DNA of 64,000 nucleotides from NCBI RefSeq assembly GCF_046105845.1, contig NZ_CP151004.1. One strand, given 5' to 3'. The notes under the pieces are model-generated. The model had not been told where the DNA came from. It did not search any database and was given only the letters and a program-made list of their open reading frames with translations. Shown piece by piece: positions 26,661 to 63,748 of this stretch. The DNA comes from Escherichia coli. GTDB lineage: Bacteria > Pseudomonadota > Gammaproteobacteria > Enterobacterales > Enterobacteriaceae. A program made the translations under genes and the position numbers. How positions within the stretch are numbered: position 1 is the stretch's first letter; each line of letters opens with the position of its first letter.

Positions 26661-27095
26661 CAGTGTTTCTCCTTTCGCCCGCCAGAGTAAAAAGCAACCG
26701 TTTACGTTAATGAAACTGTCTAAACACATGCTCGTGGAGTGCCAGTTTTTGCGAGGAAGGGGAGTTAGAGACAGGAATTGCGGAGGCAATCACATAATCG
26801 TGGTTAAACCACGAAAATGAGAAGAGAACCTGACAATGGAATTATCTGTAATTTTCTCATATTGATATTTCATTAATCATTCTGGCATGTCGCACTCTCG
26901 CTTTTAATCGTTTTTATCTGGATAGCGCTCTTTTGGTCGGCAATGTTGAAATAATGAAAGCGGCACAGATTGAGGGGCAATAATTTGAACTCAGTCGCAA
27001 AATTATAATTAAAACGGTCATGCTACCTAATATATGCCCGTTTATTGCATCGCGAAATTTGAGAAGACATAACTCATTAAATGAAAGGGATGCAA

Positions 27096-33840: not shown

Positions 33841-36711
33841 TTATATTTTTTCCAGCGCAGTGAGTATTTTCTCCGGTGTGAAATGCCATTCGCGTAACCA
33901 GATGCCGCAGGCATCGTGAATTGCGGTAGCAATCGCCGGAGCTGCGCCATTTACACCGATTTCCGAGATCGATTTCGCCCCGAACGGGCCGACTTTATCG
34001 TCGCTCGGCACCAGCACAGCGCGGAAATCACGCGGAATATCGCCTATTTTCGGTGCGCCGTAACTGCGTAAATCACGCGTTAACGGGTGACCTTCGGCGT
34101 CATAAATGATTTCTTCGCTCATACTGTGGCCGATTGCACGAAGGGTGGCACCGTAGATTTGTCCCAACGCTAACTCTGGATTGACCGGTGTACCGCAATC
34201 CAGCAAGGCGTAGAATTTATCCAGGCGGATTTCACCCGTACGCGTGTTGACGGCAACTTCAGCAAAGTTTGCGCCATACGGGAAGGCGAAATCAGGCGTG
34301 ATATAACTGCCAGTTCCCACCAGTGAACCAAAGCCTGTGCCGGTTTCGCCTTTATGGGCAATATCCCCGAAACTAACTTCGCCTTTCTTGCCGCGTACGA
34401 CGCCCGGCGTTGCTAGTTGGACATCTGCCACTGGCTCACCCAACATTTGCGCACCGTGGAACAGAATTTTCTCCCGCAGATTTTCTGCTGCCAAACGCGC
34501 CGCGTTACCCGAGAAGCAAGTACCGGACGAGGCATATGCGCCTTTATCAAACAACGCATGATCGGTATCACCGGAGATAACATGCACGTCCTGCGGTGGG
34601 CAGTGCAGCACTTCTGCTGCCAGTTTCGTCACCACGGTATCCAGACCAGTACCAATATCCGCACCGCCAGAATGAACGATAAAGGTACCGTCTGATTCCA
34701 GTTTGATCATGCAGTTAGCCTGATCGATATCCGGGATCCCTGATTTCTGCATGATAATGGCGACGCCACGACCGATGTGCCAGTCACCGTTTTGTGGTTT
34801 TGGTGAAGACCATTGGATCATCTCGCGACCCTGACGCAGGATCTCTTCCAGTGCGCAGCTGGCGGCGGAAGGAACGGAGGTCGGCGCTTTACCTTCACCG
34901 ATTGCACCGAGAATTTTCAGCTCTTGCCCTTCGTGTACCCGGTTACGTTCGATAATTTCCAGTTGGTCGATCTGTAACTGTTCAGCCAGTTCCGCTAATG
35001 CCATGGTGATAGCGAAGTTACCTTTCGGTGCGCCATAACCCTGATAAGCACCATTTGGGCAAATGTTGCTGTAGTAGGTGGTGACCTGGAAATCGACGTT
35101 ATCGCACGGATATAACGGCAGCGACAGCGCCGGTCCGTTACACGGTACGGTGAGTGAGTGGTTGCCGTAAGGGCCAGTGTTGGCGCGGAAATCCATCTTC
35201 ACTGCCGTCAGGCGACCATCTTTTTTCGCTCCCAGTTTGACGGTGACTTTCGCGACGTGACGAGAGGTGTTAGCAATAAACTCTTCTTCACGGGTGTAGC
35301 GGAACAGTACCGGACGCCCGGTCACGCAGGTTGCCCAGGCGCACACTTCTTCCAGCAGGATGTCCTGTTTGGAACCAAAACCGCCGCCAACTCGCTCTTT
35401 AATGACATGAACTTTATGCTGTTTCATGCCCACGAGGCGCGCGACCTGGCGGCGTAAGTGCCATGGTACCTGGGTGGAGGCGTGGATAACCAGACGATCG
35501 CCGTCCATACGGGTAAAGCAGATATGAGTTTCAGTCGGGCACTGCTGCGCCTGCGTTGAGTTATAGGTTCGCTCAATGATCACATCGGCATCGGCAAAGC
35601 CTTTGTCCATATCGCCGATATGACCATGAATACTGGCGGCGATATTTTTACGGGGGCGAGAACCGATCGGGAAGTTGATGATCATATGCTCGCCGCGCTG
35701 GGCTGCATGGCTGTTATCGTCTTCCAGAGTATCTGGCGCACCAGCAACATACACCACCGGTTCATCGTGCACGACAGGCGCATCTTCCGCCATTGCTTCG
35801 TCGATCGACATTACAGGTTTAAGCACTTCATATTCAACGTCGATGAGCTTCAGTGCTTCGAGCGCAATTTCTTCACTTTCTGCGACGACCGCAGCAACAC
35901 GATCGCCGACGTGACGCATTTTCTTGCCGAACATACGGCGGTCAAGCGGTGACGGTTCCGGTGCGCTCTGACCGCCCGGGGTATAGTAGATATCCGGGCA
36001 ATTCAGGTGAGTAATAACGTGAACAACGCCCGGTAAGGCTTCAGCTTTGCTGACATCCAGATGAGTAATCAGTGCGTGAGCGTGTGGGCTACGTAACATT
36101 TTAATGACGCAGGCGTCAGCCGTTACGCGGTCTTCAACATAGCAGGGTTTCGCCTGCACCATTTTCGCGGCATCAGTTTTAGGATAATGCTTACCAATGA
36201 CTTCAAGGTCATCGCGGAAAGTCGGAGCGATATCAATGGTGGCCTGCGGATTATTTTTACGTGCAACCGCCAGTTCAATGACCTGATAGTATTGTTGCCA
36301 GCCTGCATCGCGGCTGAACAAACCAGAAAGCGCGTCGTCGATCTCTTCGCGGGTCGGTGCGGCAATGCGATCGAGAAGATCGGTGATAATCAGAGCCGCA
36401 GCTGGATCGTTATAACCAGACTGCACCACGCCAACATCAACCATTGCCTGTTGAACCAGACTTAACTCGTTCCATTTGCCCAGAGACTCTGCGGTACGAA
36501 TATCTGCCTTCTCTAACTGTGCGGCGATAAGCAAGGACGCGTTAACGATATTACCGTTACAGATAATTGCGTCAGAACCGGCAAACCCGAATCCATCATC
36601 GCTGTTGCGTACAGAGTGCATTCCCATGTTAAACAACAGCTTTTGCACGTTTTCGCCTGGATTAACGGTTAGCTCCTGAGGCGCGCCATTTAAAGTAAAG
36701 TGGATGATCAT
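33841..36711 (-). CDS. xdhD: Molybdopterin-dependent hydroxylase, fused 2Fe-2S and Mo-binding domains (xanthine dehydrogenase family)
   Basis: 956-aa ORF MIIHFTLNGAPQELTVNPGENVQKLLFNMG...; N-terminal 2Fe-2S ferredoxin-like domain then aldehyde-oxidase/xanthine-dehydrogenase Mo domain. Confidence 0.9.
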   Translation of the reverse strand: MIIHFTLNGAPQELTVNPGENVQKLLFNMGMHSVRNSDDGFGFAGSDAIICNGNIVNASLLIAAQLEKADIRTAESLGKWNELSLVQQAMVDVGVVQSGYNDPAAALIITDLLDRIAAPTREEIDDALSGLFSRDAGWQQYYQVIELAVARKNNPQATIDIAPTFRDDLEVIGKHYPKTDAAKMVQAKPCYVEDRVTADACVIKMLRSPHAHALITHLDVSKAEALPGVVHVITHLNCPDIYYTPGGQSAPEPSPLDRRMFGKKMRHVGDRVAAVVAESEEIALEALKLIDVEYEVLKPVMSIDEAMAEDAPVVHDEPVVYVAGAPDTLEDDNSHAAQRGEHMIINFPIGSRPRKNIAASIHGHIGDMDKGFADADVIIERTYNSTQAQQCPTETHICFTRMDGDRLVIHASTQVPWHLRRQVARLVGMKQHKVHVIKERVGGGFGSKQDILLEEVCAWATCVTGRPVLFRYTREEEFIANTSRHVAKVTVKLGAKKDGRLTAVKMDFRANTGPYGNHSLTVPCNGPALSLPLYPCDNVDFQVTTYYSNICPNGAYQGYGAPKGNFAITMALAELAEQLQIDQLEIIERNRVHEGQELKILGAIGEGKAPTSVPSAASCALEEILRQGREMIQWSSPKPQNGDWHIGRGVAIIMQKSGIPDIDQANCMIKLESDGTFIVHSGGADIGTGLDTVVTKLAAEVLHCPPQDVHVISGDTDHALFDKGAYASSGTCFSGNAARLAAENLREKILFHGAQMLGEPVADVQLATPGVVRGKKGEVSFGDIAHKGETGTGFGSLVGTGSYITPDFAFPYGANFAEVAVNTRTGEIRLDKFYALLDCGTPVNPELALGQIYGATLRAIGHSMSEEIIYDAEGHPLTRDLRSYGAPKIGDIPRDFRAVLVPSDDKVGPFGAKSISEIGVNGAAPAIATAIHDACGIWLREWHFTPEKILTALEKI

Positions 36712-37487
36712 ACGGCTTCCTCCCCAGCCTGTTGGCAGTCGGCATACAGGTCGGCTACCAGAACTCCCGTGATATAGCGTTTATAGGCCACGCTGCCCCG
36801 CAAATCTTCCTGCGGGAAAATGGCGTTGGCGACAGCCTGTTCAAGTGCATTGCCTTCCAGATTTTGTTTTTCAACATCGTGCAGACGCAGTGCTTTACTG
36901 GCGACGCCATCCAGCGCAATTCGCATACCGTCGTGGTCTGTCATTGCAACGGCTGCCGTCACGACGGTTAAACCTGCCTGAGAACGGCTAATTTTGCGGG
37001 TCGCACAGGTGCGATACGGATCTTTAATGATAATTTCGGTTAGCAGGCGATCGCATGGGCAGGCCAGGTAGTCCTCGATTGACAGCGTTTCGCCGTTGCC
37101 AAAAACCAGTTCAGCATCCAGTGCCAGCAGGACGGGAAGCAGCACCGACTCTTCCTGCCGGGCGGCGATTTCACCACCAATGGTCGACTGATTACGAACA
37201 TGGCGAGAGTAGACAAAGCCGAGGGCTTCACGCAGTGCTGCAGGAATAAATCGCGCATCACGCAGTGGCTGCAAGCGAGACATTGCACCAATCCGCAGTG
37301 CACCGTTATCCCAGTCAACCCAGTCCAGTTCCAGATCCTGTAAGGAAATGGCAATCTTTTTATCGGTACGGGTTGGTGTAGCGTTGAGTTTGCTGCCCCC
37401 GGCGAACCAGACGGCTTCATCCTGGTAGCGGCGCTTCAGTTCCAGCGCCTGTTCGACAGAGTCGGGCCTGAAAAATTGTTCAATCAT
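36708..37487 (-). CDS. ygfM: FAD-binding subunit of molybdopterin hydroxylase (CoxM/XdhB-like)
   Basis: 259-aa ORF MIEQFFRPDSVEQALELKRRYQDEAVWFAGGSKL...; stop overlaps the xdhD start. Confidence 0.88.
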   Translation of the reverse strand: MIEQFFRPDSVEQALELKRRYQDEAVWFAGGSKLNATPTRTDKKIAISLQDLELDWVDWDNGALRIGAMSRLQPLRDARFIPAALREALGFVYSRHVRNQSTIGGEIAARQEESVLLPVLLALDAELVFGNGETLSIEDYLACPCDRLLTEIIIKDPYRTCATRKISRSQAGLTVVTAAVAMTDHDGMRIALDGVASKALRLHDVEKQNLEGNALEQAVANAIFPQEDLRGSVAYKRYITGVLVADLYADCQQAGEEAV

Positions 37488-37537
37488 CTTCTTTCCTTAT
37501 TTAACCCTCTTCCCTACGGGAAGAGGGTATTTGTCAT

Positions 37538-38866
37538 TTATGCCAGCGCATCCATCCGACGCCACATACTGGCAGCGGCTTTTCTGGCTTGCGCATAAAT
37601 GGAATCGCAATCGAAGTTAAACTGACGGTCTTCATAGACCATCACACCATTGACCATCACGCTGTGAACGCTGCCTGAGCCCATACCGAAAGCGATATGC
37701 CCGGCGATATTGTCTGCCAGCAGCGGCGTCGGCGAGTTGTAATCGCAAATGGTTAAATCGGCTTTGTAACCGGCTTCCAGAAGGCCAAATTTCGCGCCAA
37801 AATTGCGGCTCATCAGTTCGTTGCCGTTAGCCAGTGCTTTGGCAAAACTGTCAGGCCACAGCGGACCACCCGCATCGCGATGTTTAAAGAAGGCAAATTT
37901 CATCTCTTCAAACATGTCCGAACCAATGCCGTCCGTTCCCAACGCCAGATTGCGGATGTCGCTAAGGTGATGGTTGTAGCCGACATGGTTGTTCATGTTT
38001 GAACGGGCGTTATGCACCAGGAACGCATCGCGCTGATTGAGTAGGGCGATGTCATCTTTCGACAAGTACAGCCCATGAGCGACCAGCGTTTTGCTGTCGA
38101 TGAGATCGAATTGCGCCAGTCGTGCCAGCAGGTCTTTGCCGTACCAGTGGTGACTGTAGGAAACGTCATAAAGGTCTTCCGCAGCGTGAATATGCAAACC
38201 ACGACCTGTGGCTTTCACGGCTTCACGCAGCATCTCCAGACCGGCATCCGGCACGGTAAACGGCGCGTGAGCGCCGATATGTGCTTCCACCAGATACGGC
38301 TCGGTTGTTGCTTTCTTCGCCTTATCAATCTGACGGGCGAAGCGGATGTTTTCTTCTACACCTTCCTGCAACTCTTTGATGCCGTTGTTACGGTCAGTAG
38401 TTTCAAAACAGGTCATCGCGCGCAGGCCAACTTTTAAAAATGCGTTGCGCAATGTGGAGAGCGACCTGCCGATATACGCCGGAGAGGCATGGTGATCGAT
38501 AACCGATGTACATCCGCTCTTAATTGCTTCCAGGGAACAAATCAGTCCGCTGTAATAGAGCGACTCTTCATCAAGGGCGCGATCGAGTCGCCACCAGAGA
38601 TTTTTCAGCGTTGAGATGAAATCCGGGCAGGGGGCGATGTTTGCCATAATTCCGCGGGAAAGTCCCGAGTAAAAATGGTTGTGCGAGCAGACAATTCCCG
38701 GCATCACAATCCGACCATGCATCTCTTTGTAGCTGGCATCGGGGTAGCGTTGCGTCAGGGCATCGCCGATAGCGACAATCACATCATTTTCGATGGCGAT
38801 ATCAACGCCTTCCTGCACTTTCGCCGGGTGTAACTGCACTGCGGTGACATTCTTCAGAATCAACAT
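37538..38866 (-). CDS. ssnA: Aminohydrolase (amidohydrolase superfamily, chlorohydrolase-like)
   Basis: 442-aa ORF MLILKNVTAVQLHPAKVQEGVDIAIENDVIVAIGDAL...; HNH metal-binding motif (CSHNHFYS). Confidence 0.9.
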   Translation of the reverse strand: MLILKNVTAVQLHPAKVQEGVDIAIENDVIVAIGDALTQRYPDASYKEMHGRIVMPGIVCSHNHFYSGLSRGIMANIAPCPDFISTLKNLWWRLDRALDEESLYYSGLICSLEAIKSGCTSVIDHHASPAYIGRSLSTLRNAFLKVGLRAMTCFETTDRNNGIKELQEGVEENIRFARQIDKAKKATTEPYLVEAHIGAHAPFTVPDAGLEMLREAVKATGRGLHIHAAEDLYDVSYSHHWYGKDLLARLAQFDLIDSKTLVAHGLYLSKDDIALLNQRDAFLVHNARSNMNNHVGYNHHLSDIRNLALGTDGIGSDMFEEMKFAFFKHRDAGGPLWPDSFAKALANGNELMSRNFGAKFGLLEAGYKADLTICDYNSPTPLLADNIAGHIAFGMGSGSVHSVMVNGVMVYEDRQFNFDCDSIYAQARKAAASMWRRMDALA

Positions 38867-38868
38867 GA

Positions 38869-41800
38869 TTACACCTCCACACGGTCCAGCAGATAATGAT
38901 GATGCTGGTGGACATGGCTAATAATGCGGCACATATCGTTCAGCTCCGGTGGTACGTTGTTGAACTGACCTTCGCTGTCGATGTTTAACACCCAGCTTTG
39001 GTTATTCAGACGTACTCGTACCCGGCAATCTTCCACAAGGAAGCCTGGGTTGCTGCTGTTATCAAAGTCTTGCGACAGGCTGAAGACGGTGATTTTGTCT
39101 TTGTACGGTTTACCGTTCCACGGGCAGAACTGAGCGCAGTTGCCGCATTCGTTACAGTAAGCGTCGAGGTGCAGCGTCTGGAAACGGTTCTGGAAGCCAG
39201 GGACCGCAATGGATACGTTGGCGCGGTTCGGGCAGACATCCACACACTTGCTGCAAACGTAGTTACATTCAAGGCAGCGTGCGGCTTCCTGGGCGACAAA
39301 CGCGTCACGATCGTCGCTATCCACCAGGGTGATAGAGATATCGCCTTTGCGTTGATAGATTTCCGCCGGATTAACGTTGTTCCAGTATTTATCGTTCTGG
39401 TGGGAACGGATATTTTCCCGACTAAGGATGGCATCGGTCGCCCGACGCGCGGTTCCGACAGCAGCGACAATGGAGGATGGTCCGTGCTGTACGTCGCCGA
39501 TCATAAAGACGTCAGTCAGACGAGTTTCGCCATTATGGTCGACGTCTGGCCAGCCGTTTTTGTCCAGCGGCACGCCCATCGCATTCAGGGCTTCAGTATC
39601 CTGCTGTTCACCAATGGCGGTGATCAGGCTGTCTACATGCAGTGTTACTGTTTCGTTGGTTTCAACCGGACGGCGACGACCTTTCTCATCAGGTTCGCCA
39701 AGCGACATAACGCGCAAGGTTAAGGTGCCATCAGCATCGAAACGTTCCGGATTATTCAGGAAACGGAACTCCACGCCGTCGTGCAACGCTTCTTCATACT
39801 CTTCGCGCCATGCTGGCATCTCTTGCAGTGAACGACGGTAAACGACCGTTGCTTTTTCTACGCCTGGAACGCGTAACGCCGCACGAGCGCAGTCCATTGC
39901 CGTGTTACCCGCCCCGACAACGACCACATGTTTGCCCAGCTTGAGCGCTGTGCCCTTGTTGTATTCACGCAGGAAGGGGAGTGATTTCCAGACATTTTGG
40001 TTGTCGCCCGCGAGTTTCACACCGCTATTTTTATCAGTGCCGGTGGCAATCAGAACATAGTGGAAGCCCTGATTTTTTAACTGTTCAACGGTCAGATCGG
40101 GTGAGCAGCCATACTCAAATTTCACGCCGTGAGCGGCAACAAAATCAATATCGTGCTGAATTAACTCTGCAGGAATACGGAACTGAGGAATGATATTTTT
40201 CACCACGCCGCCCGCATTGGCTTCGCGTTCAAACAGCGTAACCGGATGGCCCGCTCTGGCAAGGAAGTAACCTGCTGCCAGACCCGCCGGACCTGCACCA
40301 ATCACGGCAACCGGATGGCGTGAACCAGAACCGGCTGGTTTGTGCCAGCGTTGCTTATATTCATCCCAACCTTTTTCCAGCACGACTTTTTTCAGTTCGC
40401 GGATATTCAGCGCACTGTCGTAATCCAGGCGGGTACAGTTGTATTGGCACTGGTGATCGCAAATATGACCGGTAATGGCGGGCAGGGCGTTGCGTTGGTA
40501 GATGAGTTCCAGCGCGTCGGCATAGCGGTGTTCGCCAAGCAAACGGATGTATTCCGGAATATCTTGCTTGATAGCGCAGGCAGTAACACAGGGGGCAACG
40601 TAGCAGTCGGTCAGCGGCAGGTCTTCTGCCACTTCAATACGCTCTTCTGGCTTCCAGTGTTTCTGAGTGTATTCCATGGTTAACGCGTCTGCTGCCAGTT
40701 TGTTCAGGCGTTCGACGTCAACATGGTCAAGCCCCCAGGCGTCGGAGCCTTCCAGCTCGCGCATGCAGGCACTTAAGCGCAGATAGCCGCCAGGTTTCAG
40801 CAGGTCGGTTGCCATAGTAATAGGGCGAATACCAGTATCAAAAATATCGCGGATAGTCAGCTGACTGGCACCACCGGAATAAGAAATGGGCAGTTTGCCG
40901 TCAAAGGCGCGAGAGAGAACTGCTGCAACATTGATGGAGAGCGGGAACAGAGCACGGCCTGACATATACATCTCTTCACCAGGCAGTGCGCCTTTATTGT
41001 TGATGGTGCCGAGAGTGTTAGTCAGTTTTACGCCAAAGCCGAGTGATTTTTCTTTTGCCAGTACCATCAGGCGTTCCAGCATTTCCAGCGCTTGCGTCAG
41101 CTTGAGGTCGTGATCAAATGACTCTTCTTTTAAGCCTATGTAACCGAAACCGCAGACATCGAGGATCTCACGAACACGCGCATACCCCAGTAAGGTCGGG
41201 TTGAGTTTCACAAAGGTATTGAGCCCTTTTTCTTCCAGCATGTAGCGGCAAATGGCTTCGATTTCATGCGGAGGACAGCCGTGCATGGTGGAGAGGGTGA
41301 CGCCCTGCACCATACTGGTGGGGATGCGAGCGGGTAAGGCTTGCAAGCTTTCGCGTTTTTCCTGCAATCCGTGGCGGGCTAAAAATGCGTCATCCTGGAG
41401 TAATTTATTCAGCGTATCGCGATATTGCGCGAATTTCGGATGGTCAGATGCGTCCATCATATTGTCGATGAACTGTTGCATCGGTGGTTGCTTAATACCT
41501 TCGAGGTTATAACCGACGCTCATATTAAAGATGAACGATTTACCGGAATCAGAAGGCTGGAACATCGCTTCGAGAAGGTGCAGGGCAAACCAGGCTTTGA
41601 GGTATTCATCCCAGGCTTTAAGCAGGGTAAATTCGGTAGACCATTCGGTGTTAAAGCACTCGTCTTCGGCATCGATACAGGGCTTTTCCAGCTCCAGGCG
41701 GTCAAGAATTTGGACGGTTTTTAGTTCGATGAAGCGCCCGCCAGTCAGCCAGGAAGTGACAATATTTTGCGCGAGCTGCGTGTGCGGGCCAGCGGCAGGG

Positions 41801-41967
41801 CCGACGGGAGTGGCACAGGTTTCACCGAAGACGCTAACAGTTTTACCTTTTACGGGTGAGTAAAACTGTTGCTCGGGAATACCAAAGATTGAGCGTTGTT
41901 GTTGGTATTCATCAAATATGCGCGTCAAAAGTTCCTCAAACGGAATGGGACGCATAATATCCCCCAT
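38869..41967 (-). CDS. ygfK: Large Fe-S / FAD-NAD(P) oxidoreductase (GltD-like plus DPD-like domains; annotated putative selenate reductase subunit)
   Basis: 1032-aa ORF MGDIMRPIPFEELLTRIFDEYQQQRSIFGIPEQQF...; starts 3 nt after... rather, its stop lies 3 nt upstream of the ssnA start on the same strand. Confidence 0.88.
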   Translation of the reverse strand: MGDIMRPIPFEELLTRIFDEYQQQRSIFGIPEQQFYSPVKGKTVSVFGETCATPVGPAAGPHTQLAQNIVTSWLTGGRFIELKTVQILDRLELEKPCIDAEDECFNTEWSTEFTLLKAWDEYLKAWFALHLLEAMFQPSDSGKSFIFNMSVGYNLEGIKQPPMQQFIDNMMDASDHPKFAQYRDTLNKLLQDDAFLARHGLQEKRESLQALPARIPTSMVQGVTLSTMHGCPPHEIEAICRYMLEEKGLNTFVKLNPTLLGYARVREILDVCGFGYIGLKEESFDHDLKLTQALEMLERLMVLAKEKSLGFGVKLTNTLGTINNKGALPGEEMYMSGRALFPLSINVAAVLSRAFDGKLPISYSGGASQLTIRDIFDTGIRPITMATDLLKPGGYLRLSACMRELEGSDAWGLDHVDVERLNKLAADALTMEYTQKHWKPEERIEVAEDLPLTDCYVAPCVTACAIKQDIPEYIRLLGEHRYADALELIYQRNALPAITGHICDHQCQYNCTRLDYDSALNIRELKKVVLEKGWDEYKQRWHKPAGSGSRHPVAVIGAGPAGLAAGYFLARAGHPVTLFEREANAGGVVKNIIPQFRIPAELIQHDIDFVAAHGVKFEYGCSPDLTVEQLKNQGFHYVLIATGTDKNSGVKLAGDNQNVWKSLPFLREYNKGTALKLGKHVVVVGAGNTAMDCARAALRVPGVEKATVVYRRSLQEMPAWREEYEEALHDGVEFRFLNNPERFDADGTLTLRVMSLGEPDEKGRRRPVETNETVTLHVDSLITAIGEQQDTEALNAMGVPLDKNGWPDVDHNGETRLTDVFMIGDVQHGPSSIVAAVGTARRATDAILSRENIRSHQNDKYWNNVNPAEIYQRKGDISITLVDSDDRDAFVAQEAARCLECNYVCSKCVDVCPNRANVSIAVPGFQNRFQTLHLDAYCNECGNCAQFCPWNGKPYKDKITVFSLSQDFDNSSNPGFLVEDCRVRVRLNNQSWVLNIDSEGQFNNVPPELNDMCRIISHVHQHHHYLLDRVEV

Positions 41968-42288
41968 AACCCTCTCCTTAGCTTATACAGATATCATTGA
42001 GTGACCGGTGTTGAGAAATCCGGTGGTTTAGGGGGATAGAGCAACAATCGCACCACTCTTGCCAGGTTTGGCGGGAAATATAAAAAAATGTGAGGCGGCT
42101 CGAAACTTAAGGGCTTTTTGTGAATGAACTCACAGGTGCCAAATGAGAATTAAAATCACTCCTGAAAATTATTATTGCCAGCCCATTTATCACTTTTTCT
42201 CTTTTCTCAAAATCAGTGATTCCTTATCATTATGATAAAGAGTGCCGGAAGGATTAAATATTTGAACGCAATCGTTTAACTACGTTTT

Positions 42289-42867
42289 CTAAAATTCAGT
42301 ATACCTTTTCTTCGCTGTAATAAAGTCGTCAGGAGTATCAATATCTAAAATTATTTCTGCATTTTCTATTTCGACGGAATAATGATCTCCCATAAGGAGT
42401 GCCTGACGCATATTGGTGATATTGGGACGCTGGATTGCCTGCATCAGGCATGGCTTTGATACTAAAATCGGATGGCCGGGAATGCCATTATGGAGTGGCA
42501 GTATTGCGCCATCATTTCGTAACGACCAGATTTTTCTAAAAATATCGATGGTGAGGGTAGGCATGTCACCGTGGGTGAGAAAACAATATTCTGTTTTTAC
42601 CGCGGGTACTGCGGCCTTTACTGATGTGAGTAAACCCTGCGCATAATCTGGGTTGTGAATAATAGTGATATTGCTCTGGTTCGCATAACGTTCGTGCAGT
42701 TCATTACCACGATAGCCGGTGACTAAAATAATTCGGCTACAAAACTGCAACGCATTTTTGATACTTGTATCAAGAATTGTTCCCTGTTGCCAGGGTAACA
42801 TCATTTTCCATTGCCCCATTCTTGATGATAATCCGGCAGCGGTAATTATACAGTCGATGGCTGACAT
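42289..42867 (-). CDS. mocA: Molybdenum cofactor cytidylyltransferase
   Basis: 192-aa ORF MSAIDCIITAAGLSSRMGQWKMMLPWQQG... with the MobA-like nucleotidyltransferase N-terminal motif. Confidence 0.88.
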   Translation of the reverse strand: MSAIDCIITAAGLSSRMGQWKMMLPWQQGTILDTSIKNALQFCSRIILVTGYRGNELHERYANQSNITIIHNPDYAQGLLTSVKAAVPAVKTEYCFLTHGDMPTLTIDIFRKIWSLRNDGAILPLHNGIPGHPILVSKPCLMQAIQRPNITNMRQALLMGDHYSVEIENAEIILDIDTPDDFITAKKRYTEF

Positions 42868-42969
42868 AGTGGTTCCATTATTTATAGGGGCTAATAACGC
42901 CTGATAATTGCGTTACTTCCTGATGGATTAAGTTGGGGATAATTTATCCCAGAGAGGTCATAAAGACTC

Positions 42970-43740
42970 GTGAAAAGTATAGTTGACCCATCGGCATTAT
43001 TCATTGATTTAGGTGCGCAGAAACGTCCCACTGTGATTTCTGTTGTTGGTGCTGGGGGGAAAACCAGCTTGCTTTTTTGGCTGGCAGAACTGCTCCAGGC
43101 TAGCGGCAGGCGTGTGTTAATCACGACGACGACACATATGTTTATGCCAACGTCTCACTGGCCCGTGGTTTTCTGTCGTGATCCCGCCATGCTTCCTCAT
43201 GCGTCTTTTATATCCCCCATTTCATTTTGTTTTCACAGTTGGAAAGCGAACCAGGGAAAAGTGCAGGGATTTACGCCAGAAGCGATTGATGCACTGGTAC
43301 AACGATCAGAGTGTGACGTAATTCTCATTGAGGCAGATGGCTCGCGTGGAATGCCGTTAAAAGCGCCTGATGAGCACGAACCTTGCATACCTAAAAGCAG
43401 TTGCTGCGTGATTGCTGTGATGGGAGGACATATTTTGGGTGCAAAAGTGAGCACAGAAAATGTCCATCGCTGGTCGCAGTTTGCTGATATTACTGGGTTA
43501 ACACCTGATGCACCCTTGCAACTGAGCGATCTCGTTGCGCTGGTTCGCCACCCTCAGGGCGCATTTAAAAACGTACCGCAAGGTTGTCGGCGAGTCTGGT
43601 TCATTAACCGTTTTTCTCAATGTGAGAATGCGATTGCGCAAAGCGAGCTCCTTCAACCGCTGCAACAACACGACGTAGAGGCAATCTGGCTGGGCGATAT
43701 ACAAGAACATCCTGCAATCGCGCGCAGATTTGTGAATTAG
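42970..43740 (+). CDS. yqeC: Selenium-dependent molybdenum hydroxylase system protein, YqeC family (P-loop)
   Basis: GTG start; 256 aa; Walker A-like VVGAGGKTSL. Confidence 0.85.
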   Translation: MKSIVDPSALFIDLGAQKRPTVISVVGAGGKTSLLFWLAELLQASGRRVLITTTTHMFMPTSHWPVVFCRDPAMLPHASFISPISFCFHSWKANQGKVQGFTPEAIDALVQRSECDVILIEADGSRGMPLKAPDEHEPCIPKSSCCVIAVMGGHILGAKVSTENVHRWSQFADITGLTPDAPLQLSDLVALVRHPQGAFKNVPQGCRRVWFINRFSQCENAIAQSELLQPLQQHDVEAIWLGDIQEHPAIARRFVN

Positions 43741-43787
43741 CGGCCCGGGTATTCCGGGTTACTGAAAGGATATCCATTGAGGTTGGT

Positions 43788-45413
43788 ATGAATATTTTCA
43801 CAGAGGCTGCAAAACTCGAAGAGCAAAATTGTCCGTTTGCGATGGCGCAAATTGTTGATAGCCGAGGCTCGACTCCCCGCCATTCTGCACAAATGTTAGT
43901 GCGCGCCGATGGCTCTATCGTCGGTACAATTGGTGGCGGAATGGTTGAGCGGAAGGTGATTGAAGAGTCGCTTCAGGCATTGCAGGAACGTAAGCCGCGA
44001 TTATTCCATGGACGTATGGCTCGTAACGGTGCGGATGCTGTCGGGTCAGATTGTGGAGGTGCAATGTCAGTATTTATCAGCGTCCATGGTATGCGTCCAC
44101 GTCTGGTGTTGATTGGCGCGGGGCATGTCAACCGGGCGATAGCCCAGAGTGCGGCGCTATTAGGATTTGATATTGCCGTTGCTGATATTTATCGCGAAAG
44201 CCTCAATCCTGAACTATTCCCACCATCAACCACGCTTCTCCATGCTGAGTCGTTTGGTGCGGCAGTGGAAGCACTGGATATTCGCCCTGATAATTTTGTC
44301 CTGATTGCCACGAATAATCAGGATCGTGAAGCCCTCGACAAACTCATTGAACAGCCCATTGCATGGTTGGGGTTGCTGGCAAGTCGTCGCAAGGTTCAGC
44401 TTTTCCTGCGTCAATTGCGTGAGAAAGGCGTGGCTGAAGAACATATTGCCCGTTTACATGCGCCTGTTGGTTACAACATAGGTGCGGAAACGCCGCAGGA
44501 GATCGCCATCAGCGTGCTGGCAGAAATATTACAGGTGAAAAATAACGCGCCGGGTGGGCTGATGATGAAACCTTCTCATCCTTCTGGACACCAGCTGGTG
44601 GTGATTCGCGGTGCGGGGGATATCGCCAGTGGTGTGGCGCTACGTCTGTATCATGCGGGTTTTAAAGTGATCATGCTGGAAGTGGAAAAACCGACAGTGA
44701 TTCGTTGTACCGTGGCGTTTGCCCAGGCCGTGTTCGATGGCGAAATGACGGTCGAAGGCGTCACTGCCCGCCTGGCAACCAGCTCTGCGGAAGCGATGAA
44801 ACTTACCGAACGCGGATTCATCCCTGTGATGGTAGATCCCGCCTGTTCATTGCTTGATGAACTGAAACCGCTTTGCGTGGTGGACGCTATTCTGGCGAAA
44901 CAGAATTTGGGGACGCGGGCAGATATGGCACCAGTAACAATCGCGCTTGGGCCGGGCTTTATTGCAGGGAAGGATTGTCATGCGGTAATTGAAACAAATC
45001 GCGGGCACTGGCTCGGTCAGGTGATTTACTCTGGTTGTGCGCAGGAGAATACCGGTGTTCCTGGCAATATTATGGGGCATACCACCCGACGGGTGATCCG
45101 TGCTCCTGCTGCAGGCATTATGCGATCCAACGTGAAATTAGGCGATCTGGTGAAAGAGGGCGATGTGATTGCCTGGATTGGTGAGCATGAAATTAAAGCA
45201 CCGTTGACGGGGATGGTGCGTGGCTTGTTGAACGACGGCCTGGCAGTGGTTGGTGGTTTTAAAATTGGTGATATCGATCCTCGTGGTGAAACGGCTGATT
45301 TCACCAGCGTTTCTGATAAAGCCCGGGCGATTGGCGGCGGCGTACTTGAGGCGTTAATGATGTTGATGCATCAGGGCGTTAAAGCGACGAAAGAAGTGCT
45401 GGAAGTGGCTTAA
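43788..45413 (+). CDS. yqeB: Selenium-dependent molybdenum hydroxylase 1 accessory protein, YqeB family (XdhC/CoxI-like)
   Basis: 541-aa ORF MNIFTEAAKLEEQNCPFAMAQIVDSRGSTPRHSAQMLVR... Confidence 0.85.
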   Translation: MNIFTEAAKLEEQNCPFAMAQIVDSRGSTPRHSAQMLVRADGSIVGTIGGGMVERKVIEESLQALQERKPRLFHGRMARNGADAVGSDCGGAMSVFISVHGMRPRLVLIGAGHVNRAIAQSAALLGFDIAVADIYRESLNPELFPPSTTLLHAESFGAAVEALDIRPDNFVLIATNNQDREALDKLIEQPIAWLGLLASRRKVQLFLRQLREKGVAEEHIARLHAPVGYNIGAETPQEIAISVLAEILQVKNNAPGGLMMKPSHPSGHQLVVIRGAGDIASGVALRLYHAGFKVIMLEVEKPTVIRCTVAFAQAVFDGEMTVEGVTARLATSSAEAMKLTERGFIPVMVDPACSLLDELKPLCVVDAILAKQNLGTRADMAPVTIALGPGFIAGKDCHAVIETNRGHWLGQVIYSGCAQENTGVPGNIMGHTTRRVIRAPAAGIMRSNVKLGDLVKEGDVIAWIGEHEIKAPLTGMVRGLLNDGLAVVGGFKIGDIDPRGETADFTSVSDKARAIGGGVLEALMMLMHQGVKATKEVLEVA

Positions 45414-45421
45414 ATGAAAAT

Positions 45422-45447
45422 GGCCGGATGGTATTACCCACCCGGCC
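45422..45447. terminator. Bidirectional terminator hairpin between convergent yqeB and yqeA
   Basis: ggccggatggtattacccacccggcc, roughly 10-bp stem. Confidence 0.55.
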
Positions 45448-45453
45448 TTTAAA

Positions 45454-46386
45454 TTACTGACAAATCACCGTTCCGGTTTTGCCTTCAATCCCTTCTTTCG
45501 CTTTGCTCAATACGGTAATCAGTGCTTCACGACCTGCGCGAGAGCGAGCAAACGAGGCGGCAGCTTCCACTTTAGGCAGCATAGAACCTTTCGCAAAATG
45601 ACCTTCTTCGATAAAGCGTTCAGCATCACTTAATGACAGGCGATCGAGCCACTGTTCATTCTCTTTACCGAAGTTAATGGCCACTTTTTCTACCGCAGTC
45701 AGAATGATCAGCATATCGGCATCAATCATTTCTGCTAAACGGGCGCTGGCCCAGTCTTTATCGATAACCGCACTGGCACCACGCAGGTGGTTACCTTCAC
45801 GAATAACAGGGATACCACCTCCGCCAACGGTGATCACCACCTGGCCTGCATCTACCAACGCTTTAACCGTTTCTTTTTCAATGATATCAACCGGTTTTGG
45901 CGAGGCAACAACACGGCGATAGCCGCGACCAGCATCTTCTTTCAGAGTGTAACCCTGTTTTGTCAGTTGCTCTGCTTCTTGTTCGGTAAAGAACGAACCG
46001 ATCGGCTTGGTCGGGTTGAGGAATGCCGGGTCGTTAGCATCGACTTCGACCTGGGTAACCAGCGTTGCTACAGGTTTATTAATGCCACGAGAAAGCAGTT
46101 CTTCTCTTAATGCGTTTTGTAGATCGTAACCAATATAACCCTGGCTTAAGGCAACACAGACAGACATCGGCAGCATTGGCGAGTGCGCTTCAGTTTTTGC
46201 GGCAGCTTCAAAGGCCTGGTTAATCATGCCCACCTGTGGCCCGTTACCGTGAGTGACGATGACCTCATGTCCCTGGGCAATTAAATCAACAATTGCCTGA
46301 GACGTAATTTTTACCGCTTTCATTTGTCCGGCCAGGTCATCGCCCAGCGCATTCCCGCCCAGGGCGAGAACAATTTTCTTACTCAT
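45454..46386 (-). CDS. yqeA: Carbamate kinase-like protein
   Basis: 310-aa ORF MSKKIVLALGGNALGDDLAGQ...; amino-acid-kinase family N-terminal motif. Confidence 0.9.
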   Translation of the reverse strand: MSKKIVLALGGNALGDDLAGQMKAVKITSQAIVDLIAQGHEVIVTHGNGPQVGMINQAFEAAAKTEAHSPMLPMSVCVALSQGYIGYDLQNALREELLSRGINKPVATLVTQVEVDANDPAFLNPTKPIGSFFTEQEAEQLTKQGYTLKEDAGRGYRRVVASPKPVDIIEKETVKALVDAGQVVITVGGGGIPVIREGNHLRGASAVIDKDWASARLAEMIDADMLIILTAVEKVAINFGKENEQWLDRLSLSDAERFIEEGHFAKGSMLPKVEAAASFARSRAGREALITVLSKAKEGIEGKTGTVICQ

Positions 46387-51585: not shown

Positions 51586-52060
51586 AAAGTCCCGGTAGTG
51601 GAATGACAGGCAAAGAGGTTTATTTCACTGTGACTTGCCAAAGTGATTGGTGTTTTCACAGCTATACCTGGGACTAACAATAAGTGTGCCAGAATTATCC
51701 GCGCGGCTGGAAAAGACTAATTTGACGGATAATGTGTGGGGTTGATCACAAATTGATGCCAGCTTCCGGTTGTTTGTAAAATACGAAAACGTTTGGCTTT
51801 TTTTATCGCGTTATTTATTTGCTGCTAAGTATCAGAAATAAGATAAAGGGACAGGCGATCTCTCTTCAGTTTGATAAACTCACCGCCGTAATTCTCATAT
51901 TGATATAGAAATGTGATATCTCTTCCATAATTTCATTAGAAAGTGATAAAAATCTTATGTTTTTATCAAAGCCAATTTCGCCTGAGTTAATATCATCATG
52001 ATCTATGAACCATCAACGTCTTCAATGATCGACTTTTAAGTAAGTCTGGAAGGTAAAGCT

Positions 52061-53878: not shown

Positions 53879-54358
53879 TTACTTCGTTTTCTCGCAATCC
53901 AGAACTGTATTTACAATCATCTGATACCCCGTGCAGCGACAAAGATTTCCCGCCAGTCCGCGACGAATTTCCGTAATGGTTAATGGTTTCTCGCGTGGTT
54001 TCGCCAGCATTGCTGTGGTAGCCATAATCAGGCCAGGCGTACAAAACCCGCACTGCACTGCGCCGGATTTCGCATAAGCCTGCTGAACATGAGAAAGTTT
54101 TCCGCCTTTCGCTTCACCTTCCAGCGTGCGGATCTCTTTTCCTTCAGCCCAGGCGGCAAGGTATAAGCAACTGTCTATTGCTGTGCCGTCGACCAGCACC
54201 GTACAGGCACCACATTCACCCACGCAGCACCCTTGTTTGACACTTAGCAGTCCTTGTTCGCGGAGTAATTCCGAGAGCGGCGTGCCTGGTGCGGCGTGAA
54301 GCTGAAAAGGCATCCCGTTAATGGTGCATTCGATGGTAATTGTTTCGCTGTGATTCAT
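53879..54358 (-). CDS. xdhC: Xanthine dehydrogenase 2Fe-2S subunit
   Basis: 159 aa with two Cys clusters ([11 protein letters not shown]; CGFCTPG). Confidence 0.92.
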
Positions 54359-55233
54359 TGCAATTTTCCCCCCGCCGCGGCGACGGCTTCGCTAATCACT
54401 TTTTTGGTCATCGTCTGGATGAGATGCAGACGAAACTCTTTACTGGCCCGCCATGAAGAACGCGGGGCGACATCTTGCAGGACAGATTCGCTGATAGCTT
54501 CCAGCGTTTGCAGGTTTAATGGCGCATTTTGTGCAGTCTGTTCGGCATGTTGGCAGCGAATTGGCGTTGGCGCGGCAACACCAAATGCCAGGCGTAATTC
54601 GCTGAAATTGCCGTTATCCAGTCGGCAATGTGCGGCGCAGCCAATCGTTGAAATATCCATTGCGTCGCGCATGGCATATTTAAAATGCGCGCTGCCCGCG
54701 TGTTCTTTCGGCTGGGGCGGAAAATGAAAGGCGACAAGGATTTCGTCATGCTCAAGAGACACTTTGCCCGGTCCGGTGTGAAAGCCATTAATCGGGACGA
54801 AACGAACACCGCGCGGGGAGTGGATCTCCAGTTTCGCGTCATAAATGAGCGTTGGCGTGGCAGAATCTGCGCTGGTAGCACCGTTGCAAATATTTCCACC
54901 GTAGGTAGCGACGTTACGGATCTGCGGTCCGGCAATGGATGAGGCCGCAGCACATAACGCTGGGAGATGACGTTGAGTTACAGGATCTTCAATGAGCTGG
55001 GTAAATGTCGTTGCAGAGCCGATACGTAGTGAGCCATCTTCCGCCAGCGTAATTCCCCGCAGCTCCGCCAGATTGTGAATATCAACAATATGGCGATAAC
55101 GGTCATTGTGATGGTGGAGCTGAATCAGTACGTCAGTGCCACCGGCGAGCAGTTTGGCCTGCGGGTTGTCAGCCAGCAGGTTGATGGCATCGGCAAGGGT
55201 TGCTGCGCGATGGTAAGAAGCAAAATCAAACAT
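54355..55233 (-). CDS. xdhB: Xanthine dehydrogenase FAD-binding subunit
   Basis: 292-aa [39 protein letters not shown]...; overlaps xdhC by 4 nt. Confidence 0.92.
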
Positions 55234-55243
55234 GATGTTATCC

Positions 55244-57502
55244 TCAAATCAATCCTGCCAGATGGAACTCTTCATATAACCGTTTTGGCGTCAGCGGCAG
55301 TGTATTGATTGCAACACCGGTAGCCATCTTCACCGCGTTACGAATAGCAGCGGCAACAGGAATTATTGGTGGCTCACCCAGTGACTTATGTCCGTATGCG
55401 GATTGCGGCTCATTGATTTCGACAAACGCGCTTTCCAGTTGTGGCAGATCCGGCATGGTGGGCATTTTGTAATCCAGCAGATTGGGGTTACGGACCACGC
55501 CGCTTTTCGCATCGATGATCATCTCTTCAAATAGCGCCCAGCCAATGCCCATTCCCATTCCGCCGTGTACCTGACCTTCTGCCAGCAACGGATTAAGAAT
55601 ATGGCCCGAATCATGAACGTTGAGGATGCGGTTGATGGTGACTTTGCACAGCGCAATATCGACCGTCAGATCAACAAAGGTACAGCCAAACGCCGGTGGG
55701 TTAGTGGTGGTTTTGATGGAGCTTTCAGCAGAGAGCTGCCCACCGCGTTCAGGGTGGTAGAAAGCGTCCATCGCCAAATCTTTTAAAGACATTAACGGCT
55801 CTTCCGGTCGTTCAACCAGCACGATATGGCCTTTTATCAGGGTCAGATTCATCGCTGACTGATGTAGCATGACTGCGGCGTGAGCGATGATTTTCTCTTT
55901 TATTAACAGTGCCGCACTGCGCAGCGCAGGCGCGGCAACATAGCTCTGCCGTGAGGCAAATGCGCCGGGATCGAACGGCGTAACATCGGTATCTTGTGTT
56001 GAAATAACGCGAACGTCGCTGACCGGAACCCCCACGGTTTCTGCCACCATTTGCGAGAAGACGGTGTCGGCACCCTGGCCGATTTCCGTCGCGCCGCTTT
56101 GCACGTTGATGGTTCCATCCTGATTCATCAGAAGGCGCGCGCCTGCTATTTCTACGCCGACAGGCCAGGTGTTCGAGGTGTAGCTAAAACAGGCGACGCC
56201 AACGCCGCGGCGTAAATTGCCTTGCTGGTTCTGGCACTCTGCACGGCGTTTTTCCCATTCAAAGATTTTCCGGCCTTTTTCAAGACACTCCGGCAACCCT
56301 GCGCTGTAAATACGTTTGCCTGTGAGCGGATTAGCATCTCCTTCGCGGGCGGCGTTGCGTAAACGAATTTCAACAGGATCAATACCTAACGCTGTCGCGG
56401 CGTCATCAAGCATAGACTCAACGGCAAATACGACTTGTGGCGCGCCATAACCACGCATCGCACCAGCCGAGGGGAGGTTGGTATAGCAGGTCTTTGAACT
56501 GTAAGCGTAGGCACAACGAGGATAAAGGTAAGCGACTTTATTCCCCCCTGCAGAAGCGATGGAGTGCCCGTGAGATGCATAAGCGCCGGTGTTAGACAGA
56601 ACATCCAGACTATAACCTTTCAATGTTCCGTCGCGGTTCACGCCCATTTGCCCGTCAATAGTAAAAGCGTGGCGGGTACGGGTTGCGAGGAAACACTCTT
56701 CACGGCTAAGGGAAACTTTCACCGGAATGCCGCCAAGCTTGCTGGTCAGGAATGCCGCCATTGGCTCTTCCAGTACATCCTGTTTATTACCAAAACCGCC
56801 ACCGACAAACGGTTTGATGACTCGTACGCATGACCAGGGGATATCCAGCGCCTGACCAACCACGCGGCGCACAATGTGCGGGATCTGGGTGCTGGAAACG
56901 ATGGTAATTCGCGAGTCATCTTCCATCCATGCCAGCGATGTCACGCTTTCCATGTGACAATGTTGAATGACCGGCGTCTGATAGTGCCCCTGTACCTGGT
57001 AGTCGGCGGCATCGATTGTTTGTTGGACATTGCCCGTCGACATCGTGCTTTGTTTTAGTAAATTGCCGCCGTTATGGATTGGTTCAGCGTCATCAGCCAG
57101 CGCCGCTTCTGGGGTGGTGATAACGGGTAATTCTTGCCACTCAATGCTGACCAATTGCGCCGCTTTTTCTGCCGTGAGTTCATCACGGGCCACGACGATG
57201 GCAACGGCGTCTCCATGGTGACGAACATGGCGAGTTAGCAGTGCGCGATCGGCGGTATCGCGCTTGTTTTCGTCAAGTGTCCAGGCATGCCCAGCTGTAG
57301 CGAATGGGATATCAGGCACATCTTCCCAGGTAAAAATCGCCAGTACGCCTGGTAAACTTCTGGCTTGTTCATCATTAATACTTACGGCATAACCATGTGC
57401 GATAGGGCTACGTACATATTTCGCGTAACACATGCCCGCCATAACATAATCGTCAGTATATCGTGCCCGCCCGGTGACCTTAGCAATGGCATCGACGCGC
57501 AT
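55244..57502 (-). CDS. xdhA: Xanthine dehydrogenase molybdenum-binding subunit
   Basis: Start set at MRVDAIAKVTGRARYTDDY... to give 752 aa; the track ORF extends 13 codons further upstream. Confidence 0.92.
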   Translation of the reverse strand: MRVDAIAKVTGRARYTDDYVMAGMCYAKYVRSPIAHGYAVSINDEQARSLPGVLAIFTWEDVPDIPFATAGHAWTLDENKRDTADRALLTRHVRHHGDAVAIVVARDELTAEKAAQLVSIEWQELPVITTPEAALADDAEPIHNGGNLLKQSTMSTGNVQQTIDAADYQVQGHYQTPVIQHCHMESVTSLAWMEDDSRITIVSSTQIPHIVRRVVGQALDIPWSCVRVIKPFVGGGFGNKQDVLEEPMAAFLTSKLGGIPVKVSLSREECFLATRTRHAFTIDGQMGVNRDGTLKGYSLDVLSNTGAYASHGHSIASAGGNKVAYLYPRCAYAYSSKTCYTNLPSAGAMRGYGAPQVVFAVESMLDDAATALGIDPVEIRLRNAAREGDANPLTGKRIYSAGLPECLEKGRKIFEWEKRRAECQNQQGNLRRGVGVACFSYTSNTWPVGVEIAGARLLMNQDGTINVQSGATEIGQGADTVFSQMVAETVGVPVSDVRVISTQDTDVTPFDPGAFASRQSYVAAPALRSAALLIKEKIIAHAAVMLHQSAMNLTLIKGHIVLVERPEEPLMSLKDLAMDAFYHPERGGQLSAESSIKTTTNPPAFGCTFVDLTVDIALCKVTINRILNVHDSGHILNPLLAEGQVHGGMGMGIGWALFEEMIIDAKSGVVRNPNLLDYKMPTMPDLPQLESAFVEINEPQSAYGHKSLGEPPIIPVAAAIRNAVKMATGVAINTLPLTPKRLYEEFHLAGLI

Positions 57503-57649
57503 GCAAGATTCACCCGTAGCGGTTGCTTCCCGCGCTTCCATAGAAATCCCCTCGATTTGAACATTTGGTTCTTATGGCAAAGATTTAGTCTAAGCAGGCA
57601 AGATTTACGCCAGAAACGACGATAAGCGTTAAGGGAGGAAGGAAGTGTG

Positions 57650-57697: not shown

Positions 57698-57956
57698 GGG
57701 CAGTGATACGTATCAATATGAGTGGCGATAAAATCAATGTGATAAATTGGGATTATTACGCATCAGGATGGGAAATAGGGTAAATGAGTCAGGAAATTCG
57801 ATACATCTATAGTGAATATTTTGCTGATGATACTTCCCTTTGCCAAATGAAATTAACCTCTTTCTCTATTACCGCGTTTTTCCAGAAGCAAGAGATTGGG
57901 TATCCAGAGGCTGGCTGCTATGATATGGCGTCTTGTTTTTTAAGCGAGGAAAGATT

Positions 57957-58787: not shown

Positions 58788-58861
58788 GCGGGCGTAGTTC
58801 AATGGTAGAACGAGAGCTTCCCAAGCTCTATACGAGGGTTCGATTCCCTTCGCCCGCTCCA
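58788..58861 (+). tRNA. glyU: tRNA-Gly (anticodon CCC)
   Basis: 74 nt: acceptor stem gcgggcg/cgcccgc, anticodon loop cttCCCaag, T-arm ggttcgattcc, and 3' end ...tcca (CCA not encoded). Confidence 0.93.
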
Positions 58862-59081
58862 ATTTATCTTCACCGCATCAACCTGTCATTTTTGTTGTAT
58901 CTTATTTTCCATATTATCTTAATTCAATCGCTTCAGACTTTTCGCAATCGCCGAAATACTTCCCCATTTTTTTGTAAATAAAAGCGTTTACGCAATGCAA
59001 TCCATTTGTAACAACCCAGGTAAAATACCTTATTTTCAAGTTGTTAAATAAGTGGTTATCTACGCTTTTAACAAACGATTG

Positions 59082-60704: not shown

Positions 60705-60769
60705 TTTTCATAATGAGGCGGTCCTGGATTAAAAGGACCGCTCAAAGAGAAATCGTAAGGGAGGTAAAA

Positions 60770-63744: not shown

Positions 63745-63748
63745 TGAA

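Follow-up and report, generated by a model that had tools for sequence, protein, structure and literature searches.

Chaperones of the XdhC family, such as XdhC of Rhodobacter capsulatus and PaoD of Escherichia coli, bind the molybdenum cofactor (Moco), allow its sulfuration and insert it. MobB, the partner of the nucleotidyltransferase MobA, is dispensable for the synthesis of molybdopterin guanine dinucleotide (MGD). In E. coli K-12, the genes b2875–b2877 are reportedly markers of the 'Se-cofactor trait' in Zhang 2008 as well as in Haft & Self 2008. The locus is the founding example of that trait (Haft & Self 2008, PMC2276186), and its product MocA is a CTP:molybdopterin cytidylyltransferase that makes molybdopterin cytosine dinucleotide (MCD), used by xanthine-oxidase-family enzymes, according to Neumann 2009 as cited in PMC2997495. 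The present study concerns the same locus, comprising mocA, yqeC and yqeB, at positions 42289 to 45413 of a stretch of 64,000 nucleotides (hereafter the window) of E. coli contig NZ_CP151004.1. The features of the locus are the following:

42289–42867, minus strand: mocA (ygfJ), 192 amino acids (aa); open reading frame (ORF), TIGR03310 match, RefSeq annotation
42868–42969, no strand: mocA/yqeC divergent intergenic region, 102 bp, GC content 0.39
42970–43740, plus strand: yqeC, 256 aa, GTG start; ORF, TIGR03172 and PF19842 matches
43788–45413, plus strand: yqeB, 541 aa, ATG start; ORF, TIGR03309 match, XdhC Pfam domains
43788–44561, plus strand: N-terminal half of yqeB (aa 1–258), XdhC-family Moco-binding chaperone module; PF02625, PF13478, PDB 2we7
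44562–45413, plus strand: C-terminal half of yqeB (aa 259–541, 283 aa), EF2563/TIGR03309 domain

The three ORFs lie exactly at the coordinates claimed for them in an earlier note on this DNA (hereafter the original prediction). The profile hidden Markov model check that it proposed for YqeB and YqeC was run, with MocA included, and all three proteins exceed the curated NCBIfam equivalog cut-offs. MocA scores 209.9 bits against TIGR03310 (MocA/YgfJ; cut-off 186.45), with aa 5–184 covering positions 1–187 of the 188 in the model; YqeC scores 237.3 bits against TIGR03172 (cut-off 73.05) and matches Pfam PF19842 at 3.2e-42; YqeB scores 415.2 bits against TIGR03309 (cut-off 220), aa 271–526 corresponding to the complete model (1–256 of 256). 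The match of the three ORFs to the MocA, YqeC and YqeB families far exceeds what chance would give; the observation is confirmed. Compared with K-12 mocA (b2877), yqeC (b2876) and yqeB (b2875), the genes, their order and their lengths (192, 256 and 541 aa) are the same and nothing material differs, so that the window carries a strain-level allele. The locus is the known locus b2875–b2877, already described and a matter of routine annotation.

We read mocA, yqeC and yqeB as a cofactor-maturation module for the anaerobic purine/urate molybdenum hydroxylases XdhD–YgfM and probably XdhABC, in which MocA, YqeC and YqeB would act in that order, and we regard this reading as moderately probable. In the first step, which published experiments have demonstrated, MocA adds CMP to Mo-molybdopterin to yield MCD. 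YqeC, as a P-loop NTPase of the SIMIBI class, would then serve as the nucleotide-dependent adaptor of MocA and hand on MCD, in the way that MobB works with MobA. The XdhC-like half of YqeB would hold MCD, while the EF2563 half would swap the terminal Mo ligand for selenium from the selenophosphate made by SelD; the matured cofactor would finally be inserted into the apo-hydroxylase XdhD, perhaps also into XdhA. This division of labour within YqeB is proposed by analogy with XdhC, which holds Moco during sulfuration and then inserts it. Expression is split, with mocA and yqeC expressed from their short divergent spacer, yqeB from a sigma-54 promoter within yqeC and the client operon from a promoter of its own, PygfK. 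The interpretation given in the original prediction is supported, with corrections on the orientation of mocA, on the role of MocA and on the dependence on selenium in E. coli. In particular, the statement that the biochemical roles of these proteins are poorly defined holds for YqeB and YqeC but not for MocA, given its cytidylyltransferase activity.

The MocA protein carries the motifs TAAG (aa 9–12) and GLLTS (aa 78–82), which reportedly select cytosine over guanine (Neumann et al. 2011). The GC content of mocA is 0.42 (0.41 at third codon positions), far below the 0.49–0.55 of its neighbours, and the gene is flanked by the spacers 41968–42288 and 42868–42969. This could reflect an older horizontal origin, or just the AT-rich regulatory surroundings.

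YqeC models as a P-loop NTPase of the SIMIBI class with an ExxG motif. Its motifs comprise a Walker A sequence (G27-A-G-G-K-T32), T52–T55, K97, E121-A-D-G124, K131, H136-E-P-C139 and R167. Among 149 representatives of the family, GxGGKT, the TTTT strand, K97, E121-A-D-G124, K131, E137-P138 and R167 are near-invariant (conservation at least 89%, and at least 98% for most), and all of them are present in the protein encoded in the window. E121-A-D-G124 is a Walker B motif of the ExxG type, as found in G3E GTPases. At positions 213–216 the family consensus is NKxD, the guanine-specificity motif, with N in 142, K in 101 and D in 93 of the 149 representatives; E. coli YqeC instead has N213-R-F-S, a deviation shared by the Enterobacterales, N-(R/Q)-(F/L)-S. 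Cys139 is invariant in the gamma-proteobacterial alignment but is Val in 100 of the 149 representatives, which rules it out as a universal catalytic residue or selenium carrier. A sequence search for solved structures related to YqeC returned nothing beyond generic P-loop stretches.

YqeC is linked to MocA by gene fusions. Among 148 representatives of the YqeC family, we found eight YqeC–MocA fusions, six fusions in the order MocA–YqeC and a single fusion of YqeC to the YqeB domain; TIGR03310 is the top family match of the transferase part in all seven fusions tested. Since YqeC and MocA are fused in both orders, a direct functional partnership of the two proteins is implied. In the gene row of Moorella thermoacetica, a split XdhC and a YqeC–MocA fusion are followed by YqeB, which stands alone there, and by an xdhD-like gene.

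YqeB consists of two distinct halves. The N-terminal half contains the Pfam domains XdhC_CoxI (PF02625, aa 12–74, 9.8e-20) and XdhC_C (PF13478, aa 106–247, 1.2e-32) and matches the XdhC-like structures PDB 2we7 (3.6e-27) and 3on5. Against the XdhC equivalog model TIGR02964, YqeB scores 110.8 bits, below the cut-off of 161.6, so that it is a member of the XdhC family and not an XdhC equivalog. The EF2563 domain that forms the C-terminal half occurs in most organisms as a protein by itself, about 270 aa long, and is 55–60% identical between E. coli, Moorella and spirochaetes. The model of this half (predicted local distance difference test score 93.6) shows a Rossmann-like subdomain whose glycine loop reads GAGD, a barrel resembling biotinyl/lipoyl carriers and a long terminal helix. 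A sequence search for solved structures related to the C-terminal domain gave nothing beyond generic Rossmann stretches. That the Rossmann subdomain arose as a duplicate of XdhC_C is unsupported, the hhalign probability being 3% and confined to the beta-1/Gly-loop region. In an alignment of 76 sequences, most invariant residues of EF2563 belong to the set Gly, Asp, Glu, Arg and Lys, and no cysteine of the C-terminal domain is invariant, which rules out a conserved Cys as the selenium carrier. Among the invariant residues are D20, R48, E65, D92, D108, K113, E144, R147, R177, R220, D237, D239, R241 and K253 in the numbering of the domain, 258 lower than that of full-length YqeB. The pattern of invariant residues is more in keeping with the binding of a ligand that is phosphorylated or a nucleotide (MCD or selenophosphate, for example) than with a persulfide/perselenide relay. 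In the RAPCAG motif of YqeB, E. coli has Ala where 64% of relatives have Cys.

The evidence for selenium is of a comparative and a genetic kind, and E. coli has contributed none of it. The original prediction counted YqeB and YqeC among the families tied to selenium-dependent molybdenum hydroxylases; this agrees with Haft & Self 2008, who linked all three families, MocA included, to these hydroxylases by way of this very E. coli locus and reported that TIGR03309 is confined to selD-positive genomes (PMC2276186). In Clostridioides difficile, both yqeB and selD are needed for growth on urate or xanthine, and deletion of yqeB phenocopies selD mutants (PMC11448449). Likewise, DOPDH, the C. sporogenes orthologue of XdhD, shows no activity if the strain from which it is purified is a selD mutant (bioRxiv 2025.04.24.650524). 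The predicted co-occurrence with selD also holds: YqeB and YqeC are both encoded in the window and selD, which lies outside it, is present in 5425 of the 5426 complete E. coli genomes, a species-level inference for the present strain. Within the species this is uninformative, because selD is needed for other selenium traits. We regard a selenium-specific step in E. coli as likely.

The genes around the module point to the presumed client enzymes:

33841–41967, minus strand: ygfK-ssnA-ygfM-xdhD (ygfK 38869–41967; xdhD 33841–36711)
33841–37487, minus strand: xdhD-ygfM, presumed client molybdenum hydroxylase (urate to 2,8-dioxopurine reductase); ORFs, annotation, biochemistry in PMC12507026
45454–51585, minus strand: yqeA(arcC)-hyuA-ygeY-ygeX(dpaL)-ygeW (yqeA/arcC 45454–46386)
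53879–57541, minus strand: xdhABC, second possible client molybdenum hydroxylase; ORFs, annotation; ygeV (plus strand) also lies beyond ygeW

This arrangement bears out the placement of the module between an XdhD-type operon and a carbamoyltransferase/carbamate kinase branch, with ygfK-ssnA-ygfM-xdhD on one side and yqeA-hyuA-ygeY-ygeX-ygeW on the other. According to two papers of 2025 (PMC12507026; bioRxiv 2025.04.24.650524), the flanking genes constitute the reductive urate (2,8-dioxopurine, 'yanthine') pathway in E. coli and C. sporogenes: XdhD–YgfM acts as the urate reductase, the ring is dearomatised and opened by YgfK and SsnA, and HyuA, YgeW/YqeA, YgeY and YgeX complete the conversion to pyruvate and ammonia. 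YqeB has been proposed as a chaperone common to XdhD and XdhABC (PMC2997495). The RefSeq name of YgfK is still 'putative selenate reductase subunit', a label that is out of date in view of the 2,8-dioxopurine reduction in urate degradation assigned to YgfK in the 2025 papers.

The description of the module as divergent from the hydroxylase operon is correct for yqeC and yqeB; mocA, however, lies on the same strand as ygfK-ssnA-ygfM-xdhD and directly upstream of it. The layout of mocA on the minus strand next to yqeC and yqeB on the plus strand is kept in Aeromonas, Morganella, Klebsiella (K. aerogenes), Salmonella and Psychromonas. In the relative Serratia aquatilis (L010, 2571–3000), no mocA is called between ygfK and yqeC. 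The window itself is E. coli chromosome, its segment 41900–45500 matching strain ST2747 at 99.7% identity. Of the 5426 complete E. coli genomes, 5178 carry the mocA-yqeC-yqeB segment, always under these gene names and between ygfK and arcC/yqeA, with a DNA identity of 95–99.7% across the species. It is absent from about 248 of the 5426 genomes; selD is absent from just one.

The regulatory anatomy of the locus is in part published, and each of the five sigma-54 sites that Bonocora et al. 2015 mapped occurs in the window without a mismatch. Those that concern the module, together with candidate sites discussed below, are the following:

42040–42056, minus strand: PygfK, published sigma-54 promoter of ygfK-ssnA-ygfM-xdhD, between mocA and ygfK; exact match (Bonocora 2015)
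43371–43387, plus strand: PyqeC, published intragenic sigma-54 promoter driving yqeB, inside yqeC (codons D134–I140); exact match (Bonocora et al. 2015)
45422–45447, no strand: GC-rich terminator-like hairpin between the convergent yqeB and yqeA(arcC), 10-bp stem with 8 GC pairs, T-rich tail on the minus strand
26854–26868, 42224–42238, 51863–51877, 51892–51906 and 57731–57745, no strand: copies of TTATCA-N3-TGATAA upstream of sigma-54 sites, candidate enhancer sites of a purine/urate regulon
42224–42238, no strand: one of these, TTATCA-TTA-TGATAA, a perfect palindrome situated upstream of PygfK at a distance of about 170 bp, candidate enhancer site (putatively for YgeV)
43614–43628, no strand: sixth copy, perfect palindrome TTCTCAATGTGAGAA (TTCTCA-ATG-TGAGAA), in the 3′ part of yqeC (codons F215–N220), candidate regulator-binding site
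42936–42950, no strand: palindrome GGGATAA-T-TTATCCC, in the mocA/yqeC spacer just upstream of the yqeC ribosome-binding site

Since PygfK is located between mocA and ygfK, the hydroxylase operon has its own promoter downstream of mocA. The intragenic site in yqeC is the promoter of yqeB, as its silent mutation rendered YqeB undetectable (Bonocora et al. 2015). This 17-mer, T GAG CAC GAA CCT TGC A, is written in the codons of the H-E-P motif, and the TGC codon of Cys139 supplies its -12 GC. We compared yqeC codons across seven genera of gamma-proteobacteria (E. coli, Salmonella, K. aerogenes, Morganella, Serratia, Aeromonas and Psychromonas). None of the seven departs from GAA CCT TGC at these codons. 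A single codon is kept in just 5 of the 41 degenerate columns in which the amino acid is invariant, and three of these five are the adjacent GAA CCT TGC; the two other invariant prolines of yqeC are each encoded by four different codons. That GAA CCT TGC is kept while synonymous sites elsewhere in yqeC are scrambled implies that conservation of the yqeB promoter as DNA extends far outside E. coli. The overlap of PyqeC with the codon of Cys139 hints that the DNA may constrain the protein sequence of YqeC. In scans for sigma-70 promoter and terminator consensus sequences, counts were at chance level, with the exception of the yqeB/yqeA hairpin; the mocA/yqeC spacer holds one sigma-70-like match at 42881–42908 on the plus strand, and such matches arise at chance frequency. 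An Rfam scan found no RNA family within or close to mocA-yqeC-yqeB.

The palindrome TTATCA-N3-TGATAA, allowing up to two mismatches, occurs 10 times in the window as compared with 2.3 expected, a number reached in none of 100 shuffles. Five copies lie upstream of published sigma-54 sites at distances of 120–215 bp, two of them at ygeW and one each at ygfT, ygfK and xdhA, and similar palindromes are found in the mocA–ygfK spacer of Salmonella and K. aerogenes. These palindromes look like regulator-binding sites, and YgeV is possibly the protein that binds them, being the obvious candidate; a published YgeV binding motif for comparison was not found in the literature. In the palindrome GGGATAA-T-TTATCCC the half-sites are again GATAA/TTATC, arranged the opposite way round. 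The sixth copy of TTATCA-N3-TGATAA lies within yqeC, downstream of PyqeC, precedes the yqeB ATG by about 160 bp and occupies the codons of the family NKxD position. Five Enterobacterales (E. coli, Salmonella, K. aerogenes, Morganella and Serratia) keep its half-sites around a 3-bp spacer that varies, the Ser codon being TCT in each. The palindrome is absent in Psychromonas and Aeromonas, and Psychromonas retains NKYD.

Several points weigh against a selenium-loading module of this kind. The literature holds no demonstrated selenium-dependent molybdenum hydroxylase from E. coli, and the authors' response of Haft & Self describes a labile-selenium enzyme as unobserved in this species (PMC2276186). 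The study of E. coli XdhD–YgfM mentions neither selenium supplementation nor a selD test (PMC12507026). Neither YqeB nor YqeC has a universally conserved Cys able to carry selenium, which leaves the transfer chemistry without explanation, and the guanine-specificity motif is missing from E. coli YqeC. Deletion of yqeC in C. difficile had no phenotype (PMC11448449), so that YqeC may be dispensable or redundant. The published YgeV iModulon list, moreover, contains the client genes but not mocA, yqeC or yqeB. The module might instead mature ordinary sulfurated MCD in E. coli, with YqeB acting only as an XdhC-type chaperone for XdhABC and XdhD and selenium being irrelevant. Such a role would agree with the proposal of YqeB as a generic XdhC-like chaperone (PMC2997495), with the response of Haft & Self, with the purification of active XdhD–YgfM for which no selenium addition was reported, with the Ala in the RAPCAG motif where most relatives have Cys and with the loss of NKxD from YqeC. 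However, the 55–60% identity that the E. coli EF2563 domain keeps with its counterparts in distant phyla suggests that its function has been retained, the TIGR03309 family occurs solely with selD (PMC2276186), the clostridial XdhD orthologue needs SelD (bioRxiv 2025.04.24.650524), and activity without supplementation says little given the trace selenium of rich media. We consider a purely sulfur-based module unlikely.

Alternatively, YqeC might be an enzyme that activates the cofactor or the selenium donor by phosphoryl or nucleotidyl transfer, in the manner of BioD, Mur ligases or LpxK, rather than an adaptor or chaperone NTPase, an option to which we give little credence. An older reading, based on ygfK-ygfM-ygfN as a selenate reductase, would have the module serve selenate/selenite reduction and detoxification. 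It draws on the RefSeq name of YgfK and on Bebien 2002, as cited in PMC2276186. YgfK and XdhD, however, now have defined reactions in the urate pathway (PMC12507026; bioRxiv 2025.04.24.650524), and Haft & Self argued that selD is tracked by TIGR03309 but not by homologues of the reductase subunits (PMC2276186). Given the urate-pathway papers of 2025, we set this reading of the neighbourhood aside as already largely refuted, and a role of the module in selenate metabolism as highly improbable.

Returning to the maturation module, one may tentatively go a step further. YqeC might be a dedicated NTPase partner of MocA, the analogue of MobB in the cytosine-dinucleotide branch, that passes the cofactor to YqeB, while gamma-proteobacterial yqeC would double as regulatory DNA for yqeB. 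The regulation of yqeB may even have reshaped the YqeC protein, with Cys139 in place of Val and guanine specificity lost. We put this forward as a possibility, of lower probability than the module itself.

Of the routes by which organisms use selenium, its loading onto the molybdenum cofactor is understood least, and the enzymes served degrade urate anaerobically in gut bacteria, which has a bearing on gout and hyperuricaemia. In E. coli the whole system is contained in one tractable locus, so that one could test there directly whether selenium is needed and what YqeB and YqeC do, as the literature already recognizes. What the present analysis adds are modest leads and concrete hypotheses, not a new system: the YqeC–MocA fusions, the fold assignments, the lack of a conserved cysteine and the regulatory DNA within yqeC.

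Elsewhere in the window, within 58788–64000, a tRNA (annotated tRNA-Gly in the closest genome) at 58788–58858 marks the border of a type III secretion island, which in the closest genome includes sctC, a helix-turn-helix regulator and a frameshifted gatekeeper gene; the island looks like the known ETT2 region. A SIB antitoxin RNA (1177–1327) and 6S RNA, ssrS (1976–2159), both on the minus strand, are ordinary E. coli features unrelated to mocA-yqeC-yqeB.

Compared with known systems, YqeC shares the ExxG-type Walker B with the G3E GTPases (UreG, HypB, MeaB, CobW) but is not one of them at the sequence level: its ExxG and NKxD positions are separated by a long insert, it has no conserved metal-binding Cys or His motif and, in E. 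coli, it reads NRFS, not NKxD. The predicted C-terminal barrel of YqeB superposes on the biotin carboxyl carrier protein at 1.0 Å over 63 residues, with 32% identity. Its hairpin is shorter, however, and the E. coli lysine ('HEIKAP') stands at a position that is not conserved in the family; among 76 sequences the hairpin segment contains no invariant or near-invariant lysine, and Pfam Biotin_lipoyl matches at E = 0.05.

The closest likeness of MocA and YqeC is to MobA and MobB. A MobA-family nucleotidyltransferase, MocA, is paired with, and elsewhere fused to, a small P-loop NTPase, and the fusions are paralleled by bifunctional MobA–MobB proteins (NCBIfam PRK14489). In the one available genetic test, that in C. 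difficile, YqeC is dispensable, as MobB is. No sequence homology between YqeC and MobB was detectable and YqeC falls outside the MobB family; it is about 90 aa larger and has invariant motifs of its own (TTTT, K131, HEP, R167), and the nucleotide is CMP in the MocA branch as against GMP. The parallel would thus be one of analogy only. YqeB, for its part, shares both XdhC Pfam domains, in its N-terminal half, with XdhC of R. capsulatus and PaoD of E. coli; in contrast to these chaperones it carries the additional EF2563 domain of 283 aa, and its presumed chalcogen is selenium from SelD instead of sulfur from a NifS-like desulfurase.

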